Positions 20,202 through 61,268 of a DNA stretch of 64,000 bases are shown here, piece by piece. The position numbers were made by a program, and so were the translations under genes. The DNA is from Oscillospiraceae bacterium (GTDB lineage Bacteria; Bacillota; Clostridia; Oscillospirales; Oscillospiraceae). Below the pieces are notes generated by a model. It had not been told where the DNA came from and made no database searches. It was given only the letters and a program-made list of their open reading frames with translations. The stretch lies in contig SVLJ01000015.1 in NCBI GenBank assembly GCA_015067995.1, positions 511-64,510 on the forward strand, written 5' to 3'. Numbering within the stretch: position 1 is the first letter of the stretch; each line of letters opens with the position of its first letter.

Positions 20202-20412
20202 CTTAGGGGAATGGCGAAAGCCTGCCGAAGGAGTAAAACTCTCAGGCGCCCGTGTTCGGGTGAGGACTAAGAATGGATGTGGCTCTGGAGAATCCCGGAA
20301 ACGGGTACCGAAGGTGCAAGACAGCCTGCATTGGCTGTTGAATCTCTCAGGTAAAAGGACAGAGAAGGAAACGGAACACAGAAGGTTTCTGTGGGTGTTT
20401 TCCATTGTTTTC
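20202..20412 (+). promoter_or_regulatory. tandem glycine riboswitch (two aptamers plus terminator-type expression platform)
   Basis: Aptamer 1 spans 20202-20271: CTTAG-GGGAA...GCCGAAGGAGTAA...CTCAGGCG...GAGGAC-TAAG. Aptamer 2 spans 20284-20364: CTCTGGAGAA...ACCGAAGGTGCAA...CTCTCAGGTAAAAGGACAGAG. A hairpin CACAGAA/TTCTGTG followed by a T-rich tract comes next. The downstream gene is a known glycine-riboswitch target class. Confidence 0.88.
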
Positions 20413-23083: not shown

Positions 23084-23172
23084 TGGCGGAGAGTAAGGGA
23101 TTCGAACCCCTGTGGCGTTGCCGCCTAACGGTTTTCAAGACCGCCCCGTTGTGACCACTTCGGTAACTCTCC
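23084..23172 (-). tRNA. tRNA-Ser (anticodon UGA)
   Basis: The reverse complement reads GGAGAGTTACCGAAGTGGTCACAACGGGGCGGTCTTGAAAACCGTTAGGCGGCAACGCCACAGGGGTTCGAATCCCTTACTCTCCGCCA. It has a long variable arm, anticodon loop CTTGAAA, GGTTCGAATCC T-loop and an encoded CCA. Confidence 0.93.
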
Positions 23173-23224
23173 GTATGTTATTTTGAAAAGAAAACGTCGT
23201 TGCGAACTGAAGTCCGCAACGACG

Positions 23225-23318
23225 TGGCGCAGAAGGAGGGATTTGAACCCTCGCGGCGTTTTTTAGACACCCTACTCCCTTAGCAGGGGAGCCCCTTCGG
23301 CCTCTTGGGTACTTCTGC
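23225..23318 (-). tRNA. tRNA-Ser (anticodon GCU)
   Basis: The reverse complement reads GCAGAAGTACCCAAGAGGCCGAAGGGGCTCCCCTGCTAAGGGAG...GGGTTCAAATCCCTCCTTCTGCGCCA. Features are anticodon loop CTGCTAA, a 5-bp variable-arm stem and an encoded CCA. Confidence 0.9.
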
Positions 23319-43978: not shown

Positions 43979-45646
43979 TTAGCTTGCTTCGTCGCGGCTG
44001 ACCTCGCGTACCGGCTCGCCAGAAATATCTCCGATGAAGCGATAGAAAATCCTGATTTCTTGTTTGTACGGTGTCTTGGGCCCAGCAATCGTAGTTCCTT
44101 CAGGAAGGATACGCTCGCTCACCTCAATTCGATCTATAAAAGTACGAACGATATCTTGTGTCAGGGTTTCAATGTGCGTGGCCTGCTTGACCAATTTGAA
44201 GAAGTCGCGATAATTGTCAGTGACTTGTGATGCAGCCTCGATTGAATCCCGTAACTCAGCAATCTTTGAGCTGTTGGTTTTGGATTCTTCATCGAGAGAT
44301 CTCACCATGCGCTCCAACCGCTCATCATCAATACGCCCTGAAACATTGTCCATATAAAGCTTTGTAATCATATCATCGATTTGCTTCTGGCGTTTCTCGA
44401 TGTTTCTGATCATGCTTTTGGCCTGCTGTTCTTTTTGTCCGCCTTGAGCTTCAGCTTGAACTTGACGAATGATTTCGTCCATTTCCTCATCGGTCAGGCT
44501 AATAAATTCGTTCAGTTCCTTGGTAATAATCTCAAGAAAATCCGTGTACTTGATTCTAGCGGGATGGTCACAATGTTTCGGACTTCGCTTGGGCAAGTTG
44601 TTGCATTGGAGATACCAATATTTTTCGCGCTCCCCTTTATAGACAGAGCCGGCACTACACATAGCAGTACCACAATGCGCACAGAATGCAATGCCTCCAA
44701 AGATGCTACGCCTAACGTGCTCATACTTCTGCCATTCCTTTGCAGATGCTTTCAGATTCCGTTGAACAGCATCAAAGACATCTTGAGACACTAACGGTGG
44801 ATGTGTGTTCATTGTGATATGCCACTCACTGCGATCCAGCGCAACCTTCCTCTTCGCTTTAAGGCTAACCTTTTTGCTACGGCCCAAAAGTGTATGACCG
44901 AGATAAACCTCGTTTCGGAGAATACGTTTGACAGTAACATAATTCCACGCATCCGATGCTCTTGCAGCACCCTTTTCTCCAAACTCTCCAGTATATTCGA
45001 CGCGATATTTCAATGGCGGAATAACCTTTTCAGCATTCAGCTGGTCACAAATTGCACGGGTCGATTTACCTTCGCTTGCCAGTTGAAATATCATCTGAAC
45101 GATTGGGGCGGTTGCTTCGTCTGGAATGAGTTTTGACTTGTCACGAGGATTCTTAGCATAGCCGTAAGGAGGGCAAGCCGCATATTCGCCTGCCTTCTTT
45201 TTGGCGTTCAAAATGTTTTTAACTTTCTTGGAAGTGTCGCGCAAATACACGTCGTTCATTGCAAACTGGAACGGTGCAAGTGTATTGTCCTTTTCGGAAT
45301 CAAAATTGTCGTGGATTGCAATATAATGAATTCCATTCTCAGGGAAGAAAGTTTCTGCATAATACGAGGACTCACGCATATCACGGCCCAGACGAGAAAG
45401 ATCTTTGGTCAAGACCATGGTTACTTCCTTCTTCTGCAAATAGCGAAGCATTTCATTGAATCCAGGGCGATCAAAATTTCCTCCAGAAAAACCATCGTCA
45501 ACGAACTCGCGAATAATGGTTATTCCGTGACGCTCACAATATTGGCGGATTGCAATTCTTTGGTTCTGGATACTAGATGACTCTCCGCACTTGAATTCTT
45601 CTTCGGATAATCGCAAGTAGACGTACGCTAATAATAAGGCTGTCAA
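43979..45646 (-). CDS. large serine recombinase (integrase)
   Basis: 555 aa, TTG start after GGAGGA. Resolvase catalytic domain (YLRLSEEE...DDGFSGGNFDRPGF...TKDLSRLGRD), a recombinase domain, and a zinc ribbon (CAHCGTAMC...YLQC) followed by a coiled coil. Confidence 0.93.
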   Translation of the reverse strand: MTALLLAYVYLRLSEEEFKCGESSSIQNQRIAIRQYCERHGITIIREFVDDGFSGGNFDRPGFNEMLRYLQKKEVTMVLTKDLSRLGRDMRESSYYAETFFPENGIHYIAIHDNFDSEKDNTLAPFQFAMNDVYLRDTSKKVKNILNAKKKAGEYAACPPYGYAKNPRDKSKLIPDEATAPIVQMIFQLASEGKSTRAICDQLNAEKVIPPLKYRVEYTGEFGEKGAARASDAWNYVTVKRILRNEVYLGHTLLGRSKKVSLKAKRKVALDRSEWHITMNTHPPLVSQDVFDAVQRNLKASAKEWQKYEHVRRSIFGGIAFCAHCGTAMCSAGSVYKGEREKYWYLQCNNLPKRSPKHCDHPARIKYTDFLEIITKELNEFISLTDEEMDEIIRQVQAEAQGGQKEQQAKSMIRNIEKRQKQIDDMITKLYMDNVSGRIDDERLERMVRSLDEESKTNSSKIAELRDSIEAASQVTDNYRDFFKLVKQATHIETLTQDIVRTFIDRIEVSERILPEGTTIAGPKTPYKQEIRIFYRFIGDISGEPVREVSRDEAS

Positions 45647-45671
45647 AACGGTCCTCCATTCCCAGCACTAA

Positions 45672-45866
45672 CTACGGTTTAATTATACGATAATCAGGGC
45701 TCGAATTCAAAACTCCATTTTTTAGTAACCCGTTTGAAATCTCAGTTACAAGGATCTCGGATAGAGTCCTTTGCGTCCCGAACTTTCTACGAACAATAAA
45801 CTGTCGATTTTCGACATGATAAGTGGTTGAGTTCTCCAGAGGCTGGTTACTCTTGTCTTCGTTCAT
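45672..45866 (-). CDS. small TnpW-like protein upstream of the recombinase
   Basis: 64 aa. TTYHVENRQFIVRRKFGTQRTLSEILVTEIS resembles the small TnpW-type proteins that accompany serine-recombinase transposons. This is recollection only. Confidence 0.4.
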   Translation of the reverse strand: MNEDKSNQPLENSTTYHVENRQFIVRRKFGTQRTLSEILVTEISNGLLKNGVLNSSPDYRIIKP

Positions 45867-45904
45867 TCAATCATCCTTTCCTTTGTAAGATATTTGTATT
45901 ATTG

Positions 45905-45928
45905 CCAGGTTATATAGAATTAACCTTG
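45905..45928. promoter_or_regulatory. palindrome AGGTTA-N8-TAACCT upstream of the tnpW-like/recombinase operon
   Basis: CCAGGTTATATAGAATTAACCTTG. It shares GGTTA-N8-TAACC and the arm TAACCTTGT with the palindrome at 43291-43322. Confidence 0.7.
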
Positions 45929-46180
45929 TTCCATACACTCCCCATGCGCCCGGATCATTTCCTGCGCTCAAATTTAGACCGCGTTTTTTCAGGCTCCACT
46001 ATGTAGATTTCTGTCTGTAGGCGCGCAGATGCACACTATCTACAGCTCCTGTATCACTTCCGGATGGGGCTATTGTGCCAGCAATCAATGCGGCATTTTC
46101 AAGGTACAATGTAAGTGCGGTAGAATCACCTCTAACACAGGAATGAGAAAAATTTCATTCTGCGTGGAGTGGAAATATAA

Positions 46181-46212
46181 ATACCAAAACACAATATCTT
46201 GTGTTTTGGTAT
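46181..46212. other. perfect 13-bp-stem hairpin
   Basis: ATACCAAAACACA-ATATCT-TGTGTTTTGGTAT. On the minus strand it is followed by TTATATTT, so it may be a terminator or insulator. It abuts the -35 box of the next promoter. Confidence 0.7.
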
Positions 46213-46240
46213 TGACAGAAACTAAATATTGTGCTACGCT
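46212..46240 (+). promoter_or_regulatory. candidate promoter of the leader transcript
   Basis: TTGACA (46212-46217), 17 nt spacer, TACGCT (46235-46240). Confidence 0.45.
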
Positions 46241-46245
46241 TCATC

Positions 46246-46503
46246 TGTAATTGATTCTATGTGCGTTCCTCTTTTGAGGGTAGGCTATGCCTACTGGCGA
46301 GTTCGCTTGCATTGCACACGTTTTGCTTGGATTGAACGAAACATCAGCGGGATTGTTGCGCCCTTCGGCCGACGACTGCTGATTATTTTATTTTTATCGC
46401 GGAGAATTTCTCCGTATTCGCTAAGAGCGAGAATGACTGTGCCCACCATACGGTGAGCAAAACTGGTATGCACCAGATAACGGTCATTCTCGCTCTTTTT
46501 TTG
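46246..46503 (+). ncRNA. candidate structured leader/sRNA (about 255 nt) ending in a 15-bp-stem terminator
   Basis: No credible ORF. Local hairpins at 46280-46294, 46343-46380 and 46398-46414. A terminal stem, 46423-46437 paired with 46483-46497, is followed by T7 at 46496-46502. It sits directly upstream of the yqaJ operon. Confidence 0.45.
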
Positions 46504-46560
46504 TTTTCGCCCAAACGCCGACAGGCTTTGAGGATAAATCAACAGAAAGGAGCCGTAGCA

Positions 46561-46689
46561 ATGAACCGCAGCAGTCATTTGAAACCGTGGGAGTTCCCAC
46601 ACCGCCCGACTGGTCCGCCGTGGTGCGATCAATCAAACAGGAAGCATAGGAAACGTGGTACGCCTGTGAAAGGGGGCGTCAGTATTTGA
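46561..46689 (+). CDS. possible 42-aa basic peptide, translationally coupled to yqaJ
   Basis: AAAGGAG RBS lies 8 nt before the ATG. The peptide reads MNRSSHLKPWEFPHRPTGPPWCDQSNRKHRKRGTPVKGGVSI. Its stop overlaps the TTG start of the next gene. Confidence 0.35.
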   Translation: MNRSSHLKPWEFPHRPTGPPWCDQSNRKHRKRGTPVKGGVSI

Positions 46690-47735
46690 CACAGAGCAAA
46701 ACATACGAACCGAATATCCTTGTAGACACATCAGATCTGCCCCGGGACGAGTGGCTGAAATATCGTCGTCTCGGAATCGGCGGCAGTGATGCAGCGGCGA
46801 TCCTTGGTATATCGCCATTCCGCACGGCCAGAGACCTCTATTACGATAAGCTGAACATTGTAACAGCGGACGATGAGGGAAACTGGGTTGCGATGGAGAT
46901 GGGGAATCTATTGGAACCTCTGGTCGCCAAAATCTTTGCCAAAAAGACCGGGCTGAAAGTATTCCAGCGCAAGTGCATGTTTCAGCATCCGCATTATCCG
47001 TGGATGCTGGCCGATCTGGATTACCTCGTGGAACTGCCAGACGGCAGCATTGCCATCTTGGAAATCAAGACCACGAACTATAATGCCAAAGACAACTGGT
47101 GGTACAACGGCAAAGAGATCGTTCCCATCTACTACGAATCCCAGGGGCGCCATTACATGAGCGTCATGAATATCGACCGCGTCTATTTCTGCTGCCTGTA
47201 TGGTAACAATGAGGACGAGGCGATCATTCGACACATTGACCGTGATATGGACTATGAAGCTGAACTGATTGCTTTGGAGCAGACCTTCTGGCATGAGAAC
47301 GTGCTTGCAAAGGTACCGCCTCCCTACACCGAGGATGGCGAGCTGATTTTGGAGAGCCTGCGCCGGAAGCTGGGGCCGTCTGAAAAAGATGCGCCGCCTG
47401 CTATTCTCTCGATGCCGCAGTATCCAAAAATTGCACGCTATATTGAGCTTCAAAAGCAGAAAAGTGAGGTCAACAAATCGCTGGAACAAATCAAAAGCGA
47501 AATGACCCGACTGAAAGGGCTTCTGGTTGAGGCAATGGGAACAAGCTGTCAGGCAACCTACGAGGACACCGACAGGCGGTTCACCGTTACATTCAATCCT
47601 GTTCGAACGCCCGGTATAACCAAGGAGGGCCTTGAACGAATGAAGGAGGTGCATCCGGACATTTACGAAGAGTATGTCACAATCTCCGAGAGCAGGAGAT
47701 TTTATATCAAAGAGACAAAGCCGAAAGCGGCTTAG
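46686..47735 (+). CDS. YqaJ-like viral recombinase exonuclease (PD-(D/E)XK)
   Basis: Contains EWLKYRRLGIGGSDAAAILGISPFRTARDLYYDK and LEIKTT. The C-terminal extension is coiled-coil. Confidence 0.85.
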   Translation: MTQSKTYEPNILVDTSDLPRDEWLKYRRLGIGGSDAAAILGISPFRTARDLYYDKLNIVTADDEGNWVAMEMGNLLEPLVAKIFAKKTGLKVFQRKCMFQHPHYPWMLADLDYLVELPDGSIAILEIKTTNYNAKDNWWYNGKEIVPIYYESQGRHYMSVMNIDRVYFCCLYGNNEDEAIIRHIDRDMDYEAELIALEQTFWHENVLAKVPPPYTEDGELILESLRRKLGPSEKDAPPAILSMPQYPKIARYIELQKQKSEVNKSLEQIKSEMTRLKGLLVEAMGTSCQATYEDTDRRFTVTFNPVRTPGITKEGLERMKEVHPDIYEEYVTISESRRFYIKETKPKAA

Positions 47736-61229: not shown

Positions 61230-61268
61230 AGCGGTTCACCCAACAGGGTGAACCGCTGCTTTTATTTG
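61230..61268. terminator. bidirectional terminator between convergent genes
   Basis: AGCGGTTCACCC-AACA-GGGTGAACCGCT, with an A-run upstream and GCTTTTATTT downstream. Confidence 0.8.

Follow-up and report, generated by a model that had tools for sequence, protein, structure and literature searches.

How is the DNA-processing operon of a mobile element in an Oscillospiraceae bacterium controlled? The question is posed by a 64,000-nucleotide stretch of contig SVLJ01000015.1 (assembly GCA_015067995.1, positions 511 to 64,510; hereafter the window), in which a 0.7-kb gap (45867-46560) separates this operon, on the + strand, from a divergent recombinase module on the − strand. A preliminary description made from the sequence had pictured the gap as a structured region poor in open reading frames (ORFs), either a cis-acting leader RNA or an element acting in single-stranded DNA (ssDNA), such as an origin of transfer (oriT). 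We found there a promoter overlapped by two boxes of the type bound by NrdR, the repressor of ribonucleotide reductase (RNR) genes, and behind it a structured leader RNA with terminators (Table 1). More than 100 loci of gut Clostridia carry the same cassette ahead of yqaJ-recD-primase operons. We consider it probable that it exerts control in two layers, with an NrdR-operated promoter and a terminator-gated leader RNA acting on the DNA-processing operon of the element.

Homologous regions were obtained with a YqaJ search, which yielded 80 loci (Lachnospiraceae, Oscillospiraceae/Ruminococcaceae and a few others), and with a DNA pattern derived from the leader, which yielded 22 IMG/VR contigs. 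The layout of the 600 nt 5′ of yqaJ was common to nearly all retrieved loci, and conservation peaked at the promoter, the first 25 transcribed nt, GCAUUGCACACG with its linker, the terminator-like hairpin T1, the basal stem of the second terminator T2, the post-terminator block and the ribosome-binding site (RBS). The leader pattern occurred once in the window's own genome and was not found in 400 other genomes sampled across the phylum.

The promoter-like site TTGACA-17-TACGCT at 46212-46240, already pointed out in the preliminary description, was indeed present, carried the TGn of an extended −10 element and was conserved in the homologues. A generic promoter scanner overlooked it because the −10 hexamer of the window matches the consensus at just three of six positions; the Anaerotruncus copy matches 11 of 12 consensus positions and has the TG as well. 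Transcription would start near G46247, 7 nt past the −10, and the spacing between the −10 and the conserved UGUAAUUGA was constant in 83 of 84 promoters.

Alignment of the promoters revealed two conserved palindromes, one about 10 nt 5′ of the −35 and the other filling the spacer, with the homologue consensus sequences atACtATATATaGtat and actCaAtATaTTGTGc. By definition, an NrdR site comprises a pair of 16-bp boxes, 15-16 bp apart, in which C4, A6, A8, T9, T11 and G13 are highly conserved (PMC13584703), and NrdR binding has been demonstrated with spacers of 14-17 and 24-27 bp (PMC12051234). Both window boxes possess all six positions, and among the 84 unique homologous promoters box 1 was complete in 68 and box 2 likewise in 68. 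The linker between the boxes measured 14 bp in the window, and 14 bp in 63 and 15 bp in 14 of the 84 promoters; 14 bp falls within the demonstrated 14-17 bp binding range, at its lower edge. Box 2 lies in what had been described as a perfect 13-bp hairpin at 46181-46212. The repeat is there and is perfect over 15 bp, and the idea that it acts as an RNA or ssDNA structure had to be given up: it forms part of the putative duplex-DNA operator, outside the transcript, and homologues keep only its 16-bp core and not the long stem.

The host genome encodes NrdR (TIGR00244, 214.9 bits, above the cut-off), and its sole detected RNR is the anaerobic NrdD, whose promoter carries two complete boxes of its own (Table 1). 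The 26-bp spacing of these nrdD boxes corresponds to the long-spacer class described for Streptococcus pneumoniae. Genome-wide, three box pairs were found, namely those of the window promoter, nrdD and a terminator-like site, compared with an average of 0.7 in locally shuffled genomes. The third pair (G000:C35:36068-36113, 14-bp spacer) lies between convergent genes, with one box inside a GC-flanked hairpin that is followed by a T-run; it may be an additional NrdR site or have arisen by chance. When the operator region was used in an unbiased blastn search, short matches appeared in many genomes of the order; in at least 11 genomes the match stood about 100 nt upstream of an nrdD orthologue, and in three more it lay within 750 nt. 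No RNR gene is located directly downstream of the window boxes, where the genes are the small ORF, yqaJ, a recD-like gene, a primase gene, a ligase gene and others. As judged from these sequences, the window promoter is very probably repressed by the host NrdR.

The palindromes could instead be operators of an element-encoded repressor of the zygotic-induction type, such as Reg576 of p576, with the likeness to NrdR sites arising by coincidence or mimicry. Repressor-controlled promoters are the norm for early or establishment operons of mobile elements (PMC6294495), a repressor gene could lie outside the contig, which ends before the element does, and the 14-bp linker is 1-2 bp below that of typical NrdR sites. 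However, all six NrdR positions are kept in each box of the window and of 68 of the 84 homologous promoters, across differing integrases and hosts, nrdD of the host and of its relatives is preceded by the same class of sequence, and no DNA-binding regulator was recognised adjoining the cassette. We therefore regard a dedicated element repressor as unlikely.

The predicted leader spans about 315 nt and comprises, in order, a 5′ domain, T1, the small hairpin P5, T2 with its U-tract, the hairpin P6, and the RBS with a small basic ORF. Over the 320 nt from the −10 to the first start codon, the predicted folding energy was −120.7 kcal/mol, compared with −87.8 ± 4.5 kcal/mol for shuffled sequences (z = −7.3), and none of 100 shuffles folded as well. 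T2 had been described as a 15-bp stem (46423-46437 with 46483-46497) followed by a T-run; stem and T-run were confirmed, while the arms proved to be 18 nt long and 94% complementary, with the T-run reaching 46502. With −42.2 kcal/mol (z = −7.2), T2 has the make-up of an intrinsic terminator, a stable GC-containing stem directly followed by a U-tract. The tail of T1 is U6-U8 in most homologues and is interrupted by A in the window, and hairpins of differing sequence occupy the place of P5 in homologues. T1, P5, the 5′ multi-helix domain (46246-46342), the basic ORF and a further conserved element 5′ of the promoter (element U) were absent from the preliminary list.

Table 1. Features of the gap, its flanks and the host nrdD promoter. 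Positions are those of the window; entries with a handle (G or L) refer to the genome contig or collected locus so designated.
Feature	Position	Strand	Details
Large serine recombinase	43979-45646	−	Domains Resolvase, Recombinase, Zn_ribbon, DUF4368
64-aa ORF	45672-45866	−	
Element U	45951-46110	.	Conserved, non-coding, ~150 bp; also L014:3189-3341, L036:1332-1478, L084:1167-1331
Perfect 15-bp inverted repeat	46180-46213		Arms 46180-46194 and 46199-46213, 4-nt loop; NrdR box 2 plus palindromic flanks; right end overlaps −35
NrdR box 2 (putative), ACACAATATCTTGTGT	46189-46204		C4, A6, A8, T9, T11, G13 all present (6/6)
−35 hexamer TTGACA	46212-46217	+	Inside the 14-bp linker between the NrdR boxes; TTGAC invariant in homologues
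NrdR box 1 (putative), AAACTAAATATTGTGC	46219-46234		Fills promoter spacer; 6/6 positions; 3′ end gives TGn of extended −10
−10 hexamer TACGCT	46235-46240	+	TAnAnT in homologues; 17-nt spacer; TGn extended −10
5′ domain D	46246-46342	+	~95 nt; basal stem P-1/P0 closing a three-hairpin junction
Invariant RNA 5′ end, UGUAAUUGAUU	within 46246-46342	+	
P0	46260-46265 with 46313-46318	+	6 bp, UGUGCG with UGCACA; closes P1-P3
P1 hairpin	46268-46279	+	
P2 hairpin	46280-46294	+	
P3 hairpin	46297-46310	+	
Conserved 3′ strand and linker of 5′ domain, GCAUUGCACACG...UUG(U/A)A		+	Pairs with the 5′ end as helix P-1 in most homologues
T1 terminator-like hairpin	46343-46397	+	Outer stem 46343-46350 with 46376-46383; U-rich tail UAUUUUAUUUUUAU
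P5 small hairpin	46400-46414	+	CGGAG-AAUUU-CUCCG, between T1 and T2
T2 three-way-junction terminator	46423-46502	+	Basal stem 46423-46440 with 46480-46497, two inner hairpins, then U-tract
Conserved post-terminator block, CGCCCAAACGCCGACAGGCUUUGAGGAUAAAUCAAC	46508-46543	+	Includes hairpin P6 (GCC 46517-46519 with GGC 46524-46526)
RBS AAAGGAG and small basic ORF	RBS 46546-46552; ORF 46561-46689	+	42 aa; stop overlaps yqaJ TTG start (46686)
yqaJ-type exonuclease gene	46686-47735	+	First long gene of the controlled operon; TTG start at 46686
Strong bidirectional terminator	61230-61257		End of + strand operon; 12-bp stem, 8 GC pairs
Host nrdD promoter	G000:C4:110330-110440 (L141:2830-2935, −)		Two 6/6 boxes, 26-bp spacer, both 5′ of −35, just upstream of TTGACT-17-TACAAT

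No relevant Rfam family was found at gathering thresholds over the whole window, nor at E values up to 10 over 45500-46900, where the only matches were chance hairpin matches to microRNA and plastid models; the earlier remark that the region is not a common riboswitch agrees with this. The gap had also been said to hold only implausible ORFs. Within 45867-46560 no ORF matched Pfam, and this part of the statement stood, while a short basic ORF with a strong RBS follows immediately at 46561-46689. A protein-coding reading of the gap itself was rejected, as its internal ORFs were without a Pfam match and the conservation that tblastx shows for the upstream part continues across stop codons whatever the frame.

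In the 5′ domain, P-1 is a 10-bp, G·U-rich helix of the 5′ end with the linker (GUUAA-GU-UUGUA). An alternative register of this helix, taken from the minimum free energy fold of locus L009, was discarded, with 75% of cells paired compared with 95% for the register chosen. When 67 unique sequences were folded one by one, 54 gave a four-way junction and 12 a three-way junction without P2, with hairpin sequences that were quite different. A tRNA-like reading of the four-way junction was rejected too, the loop and junction lengths being off the tRNA pattern and no tRNA model giving a match.

The stems named above were conserved among homologues, and covariation was scored in two alignments. The first (A1), a MAFFT alignment of 23 sequences scored for P-1, P0, T1, T2 and P6, had 95.2% of cells paired, compared with 35-46% when the partner strand was slid, and showed compensatory changes in 14 pairs, which none of 500 shuffles reached. 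The T2 basal stem (consensus GCGrGAAUGAC with GUCAUUCyCGC) was 94.8% paired, with compensatory changes in 6 of 10 pairs. A covariance model of the 5′ domain and T1 gave 108 matches in the collected loci, all oriented as the downstream genes, and the resulting alignment of 86 distinct sequences (A5) had 93.5% of cells paired (31-46% slid), a percentage inflated by the fitting of the alignment to the model. Compensatory changes affected 34 of its 50 pairs in 393 cells, again unmatched in 500 shuffles, and they included every pair of P1, P2 and P3 and 17 of 19 T1 pairs. In P0, UA was replaced by CG in four sequences, and P-1 was 95-98% paired with changes that were nearly all wobble-compatible (U-A to U·G, G·U to G-C). 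A5 agrees with its slid controls and with the independent folds of the 67 sequences. In the predicted helices, G·U exceeded A·C by 202 to 58 on the + strand, the asymmetry to be expected of a + strand RNA. These data indicated that the 5′ domain of the leader is a strongly conserved RNA, supported by covariation and having no counterpart in Rfam.

This strand asymmetry also bears on the proposal that the structures act in ssDNA, as an oriT inverted repeat, a single-strand origin or an Frpo-like ssDNA promoter. The proposal draws on the downstream primase, ligase, helicase, PcfJ/PcfK and YodL, which resemble leading-region or establishment genes, on EGeRS1 of pLS20, a sequence likewise repeated and structured whose block of read-through lacks a known mechanism (PMC8708921), and on element U, which lacks strand bias and could be a DNA site. 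However, the leader hairpins tolerate G·U and not A·C, bear U-tracts and sit 3′ of a canonical duplex promoter of sigma-A type with host-type operators, whose −35 and −10 are not produced by hairpin pairing, and element U folds no better than its shuffles. Furthermore, no relaxase, type IV secretion system (T4SS) or phage structural family was recognised with Pfam among the scanned proteins of a complete, ~30-kb homologous element. Thus, an ssDNA role of the leader, as the preliminary description had envisaged, appears highly improbable.

The leader RNA was invariably coupled to terminators. Each of the 88 unique cassettes had at least one U-tract hairpin after the 5′ domain and ahead of the first RBS, and 60 had two, fixed at about +64 and +160 from the 5′ domain, with some cassettes scored as having one terminator, including that of the window, containing a T1 with an interrupted U-tract. 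A short form consisting of operator, promoter, 5′ domain and T1 only was found directly 5′ of the gene for a 141-aa protein in two IMG/VR loci (L120:1400-2054 and L129:4820-5471). By eye this protein resembles a single-stranded DNA-binding protein (SSB); it had no PHROG or other family match. In Lachnospiraceae, complete cassettes also occurred as tandem pairs 1.9 kb apart (L036:1597-1900 and L036:3449-3812; also L037, L039, L041, L051, L052, L057 and L081), the first before the genes for a small zinc-ribbon-like protein and a 401-aa protein without a family match, and the second before the basic ORF and yqaJ. The adjoining integrase was a serine or a tyrosine recombinase depending on the locus, and because its type varies, the cassette appears to travel with the DNA-processing genes and not with the integration module. 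One complete cassette with yqaJ (L078) was on a contig of a Bacteroides thetaiotaomicron metagenome-assembled genome, all other carriers being Bacillota; either the contig was binned wrongly or the cassette was transferred between phyla.

Discrete, stably folded units closed by strong terminators could also be stand-alone small RNAs (sRNAs), the 5′ domain with T1 giving one of about 140 nt and the stretch through T2 one of about 255 nt; these would act in trans as regulators or primers, and the operon would be served only by leaky read-through at a constitutive level given by the strength of the terminators. The reuse of the cassette at several operons would suit such products, and the base-paired 5′ end of most homologues would stabilise a small RNA. 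However, an RBS and genes in the same orientation always follow immediately 3′ of the cassette, its conservation extends to the post-terminator block and the RBS, and no target complementarity was identified, and we think it quite improbable that sRNAs are the main products. With promoter, 5′ domain, terminators and RBS co-conserved in more than 100 loci and covariation that is strand specific, the suggestion of a cis-acting attenuator or antitermination leader was borne out in outline.

On these grounds, the probable two-layer control can be set out as follows. In the first layer, a sigma-A type promoter would be embedded in a tandem NrdR operator, box 2 lying just 5′ of the −35 and box 1 forming the spacer. 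NrdR on DNA is a tetramer loaded with dATP/ATP, and its ATP-only form is inactive (PMC9110341). Because NrdR binds DNA only with dATP plus ATP, the host repressor would close the promoter when dATP is plentiful and free it once DNA synthesis drains the pool, by the same regulatory logic as for the host nrdD. In the second layer, the transcript would start with the ~95-nt 5′ domain and meet T1 and T2 before the first RBS, so that most transcripts would stop by default, and the 5′ domain would in cis let RNA polymerase read through, either alone, like the put, EAR and canT RNAs, or with a protein partner. Inferred in this scheme are the binding of NrdR, the start of transcription, the efficiency of termination and the mechanism of read-through.

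Termination could alternatively be decided by the 5′ domain as a riboswitch-type aptamer, for example for a nucleotide tied to the DNA-synthesis state, that determines whether T1 and T2 form. A conserved multi-helix junction with variable hairpins and an invariant core directly 5′ of intrinsic terminators would fit an aptamer, as would the terminator coupling in every cassette and downstream genes that consume deoxynucleoside triphosphates, NAD and ATP. On the other hand, the domain matched no Rfam aptamer at E values up to 10, its conserved nucleotides are mainly in basal stems and not in junctions or loops, no conserved helix mutually exclusive between the domain and T1 or T2 was seen, and two independent terminators would need one expression platform each. 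The aptamer explanation thus seems to us of low probability.

Several observations weigh against the two-layer scheme as well. An exhaustive scan of A1 for conserved helices found only the described stems and trivial matches between U-tracts and purine-rich segments, the RBS among them; no alternative helix competes with T1 or T2, and a classical attenuator switch is not visible. The lack of a competing helix argues at the same time against a classical riboswitch or a zipper-type attenuator. In the window copy, P-1 is poorly formed, with three mismatches, the 14-bp linker borders on the usual 15-16 bp of NrdR sites, and the A5 percentages are inflated, as stated above. No strong sense-strand terminator was found within the window operon before 61230, and processivity is not obviously needed. 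Finally, a constitutive cis-antiterminator directly before its own terminators would make these pointless without a second input; a second input, a protein factor or a ligand, is therefore likely.

By analogy, the 5′ domain is in position and compactness most like the cis-acting antiterminator RNAs put, EAR, canT of Tn916 and conAn2 of pLS20. HK022 put and Bacillus EAR are likewise compact 5′ structured RNAs followed by terminators, and their proposed cis action on polymerase involves no alternative fold. put consists of two stem-loops and EAR, which is an Rfam family, of a pseudoknot, whereas the cassette has a basal stem with a three-hairpin junction, and the window operon shows no evident internal terminators. 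The leader matched no described processive antitermination RNA family in Rfam at E values up to 10, and its architecture differs. The canT RNA (PMC11658703) is likewise encoded by an integrative element of Firmicutes near the main promoter of the DNA-processing operon, 5′ of blocking intrinsic terminators. However, canT is ~450 nt long, lies at the opposite end of the element and reaches the terminators only after circularisation, whereas RNA and terminators are contiguous in the cassette; there is no sequence or structure similarity between the two, and a corresponding function of the cassette leader is suggested by analogy.

The leader of pLS20 (cATT, conAn1/conAn2; PMC13401043, PMC8191782) is likewise long (300-450 nt), has a terminator just before the small first gene of a very long operon and is conserved across related elements. 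In contrast to cATT, the cassette shows no conserved complementarity of upstream segments to the T1 or T2 arms and no long, imperfect stem at its centre whose extension would compete with the terminator; it has two terminators where pLS20 has one, a small ORF without a detected relation to ConAn1, and putative promoter control of the NrdR type. Conserved regulatory cassettes repeated before several operons of one element are also known from pLS20 and p576 (EGeRS1, EGeRS2/Reg576), EGeRS2 being a repressor-operated sigma-A promoter and EGeRS1 a structured sequence that blocks read-through (PMC8708921, PMC6294495). The window cassette would unite both properties, and it differs in its host NrdR-type operator, RNA-specific covariation and classical terminators.

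With the NrdR operators of RNR promoters (nrdAB, nrdDG, nrdHIEF, nrdRJ), the cassette shares two partially palindromic 16-bp boxes, a helical-phase spacer and overlap with the promoter (PMC13584703, PMC12051234, PMC9110341). It differs from them in a linker of 14-15 bp instead of 15-16 bp, in driving an exonuclease-helicase-primase-ligase operon (in relatives also the operon of the SSB-like protein or others) with no RNR gene, and in continuing into a structured, terminator-bearing leader, a feature missing from the nrdD promoters examined.

The small basic ORF is the first gene behind this leader. In yqaJ loci where it was called, it had 36-59 codons with 22-46% Lys plus Arg, apart from a few longer calls from an upstream start codon; it often ends in ...PRRxRRG(A/C), has a strong RBS and is translationally coupled to yqaJ. 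No match was found in Pfam or PHROG, and the product could be an RNA- or DNA-binding peptide. The idea that it is an obligatory partner of the 5′ domain, like an N-type arginine-rich peptide, was weakened, since the ORF is missing from the short cassettes (L120, L129) and the first tandem cassettes and since part of its C-terminal conservation is accounted for by the yqaJ RBS. It remains a candidate antitermination partner for yqaJ cassettes only.

Element U was detected in 53 loci, 14 of them non-redundant. It occurs once per element, 130-220 bp 5′ of the first promoter cassette and adjoining the recombinase/excisionase module, and contains invariant blocks, including CATTTCCTGCGC, CCTGTATAAC and TTGTCAAGGTACA, and covarying inverted repeats. 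Its conservation runs through stop codons in every frame. We rejected a structured RNA for element U, as it folded no better than shuffles (z = +0.75 on the + and −0.56 on the − strand), displayed no strand bias (G·U to A·C, 14:13) and had no Rfam match. Element U may be a protein-binding, origin-type or oriT DNA site, and within the region a DNA-level role is possible for this element only.

The source genome is a 2.3-Mb draft in 40 contigs. In the window, chromosomal genes (cysS and those for a hexapeptide acetyltransferase and an alpha/beta small acid-soluble spore protein) reach to 43959, just before the recombinase gene. The chromosomal part also contains a glycine riboswitch aptamer (20275-20372, +, 61.9 bits) and two tRNA genes (23087-23318, −). 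The 64-aa ORF next to the recombinase gene was considered as a repressor and rejected, having neither a helix-turn-helix nor a family match and being unlike the excisionase-like protein at the equivalent place in L036. From 46561 a tight + strand operon encodes the small ORF, the YqaJ exonuclease, a RecD2-like helicase and an unknown 384-aa protein, followed by a primase-YodL fusion, PcfK, DUF7666, PcfJ and an NAD-dependent ligase. The whole element is not visible here because the contig stops about 0.5 kb past the window.

In the complete genome of Anaerotruncus colihominis, a homologous element of ~30 kb has the same operon and, in addition, genes for two large unknown proteins, a two-component system with an ABC transporter, a ParM-like actin, YpsA and a sigma-70 region-4 protein. 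In the Anaerotruncus homologue, a 14-bp terminator comparable to that at the end of the window operon lies directly 3′ of the ligase gene (L137:4712-4746), with genes continuing in the same orientation. A phage identity of the element found no support: none of nine tested proteins from the element and its homologues matched PHROG, the only matches being those of the excisionase-like protein of L036. In phage and plasmid collections, the region had no blastn match.

As far as the literature searched shows, host-type NrdR operators on a mobile-element DNA-processing operon, joined to a new leader RNA supported by covariation, are undescribed; we found no description of conserved, widespread mobile-element replication or recombination operons under NrdR boxes. 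More tentatively, and with doubts of our own, we suggest that the elements have captured NrdR to time their DNA-processing genes and have combined it with a new class of compact cis-antiterminator RNA, which would make the cassette a portable AND gate in any host with NrdR. The 5′ domain, carried in more than 100 instances by Lachnospiraceae and Oscillospiraceae of the human and animal gut, is a tractable candidate for a new mechanism of antitermination or attenuation, a problem to which canT, conAn and the zipper attenuator also belong. The predictions are directly testable because several cultured and sequenced strains carry the cassette, among them Anaerotruncus colihominis DSM 17241, Pseudoflavonifractor capillosus ATCC 29799 and Acetatifactor muris DSM 23669. 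NrdR counts as a repressor specific to RNR genes, and its conserved, widespread use by mobile elements would extend the NrdR regulon; if this holds true, the element would sense the DNA-synthesis state of its host, across many hosts, without a sensor of its own.

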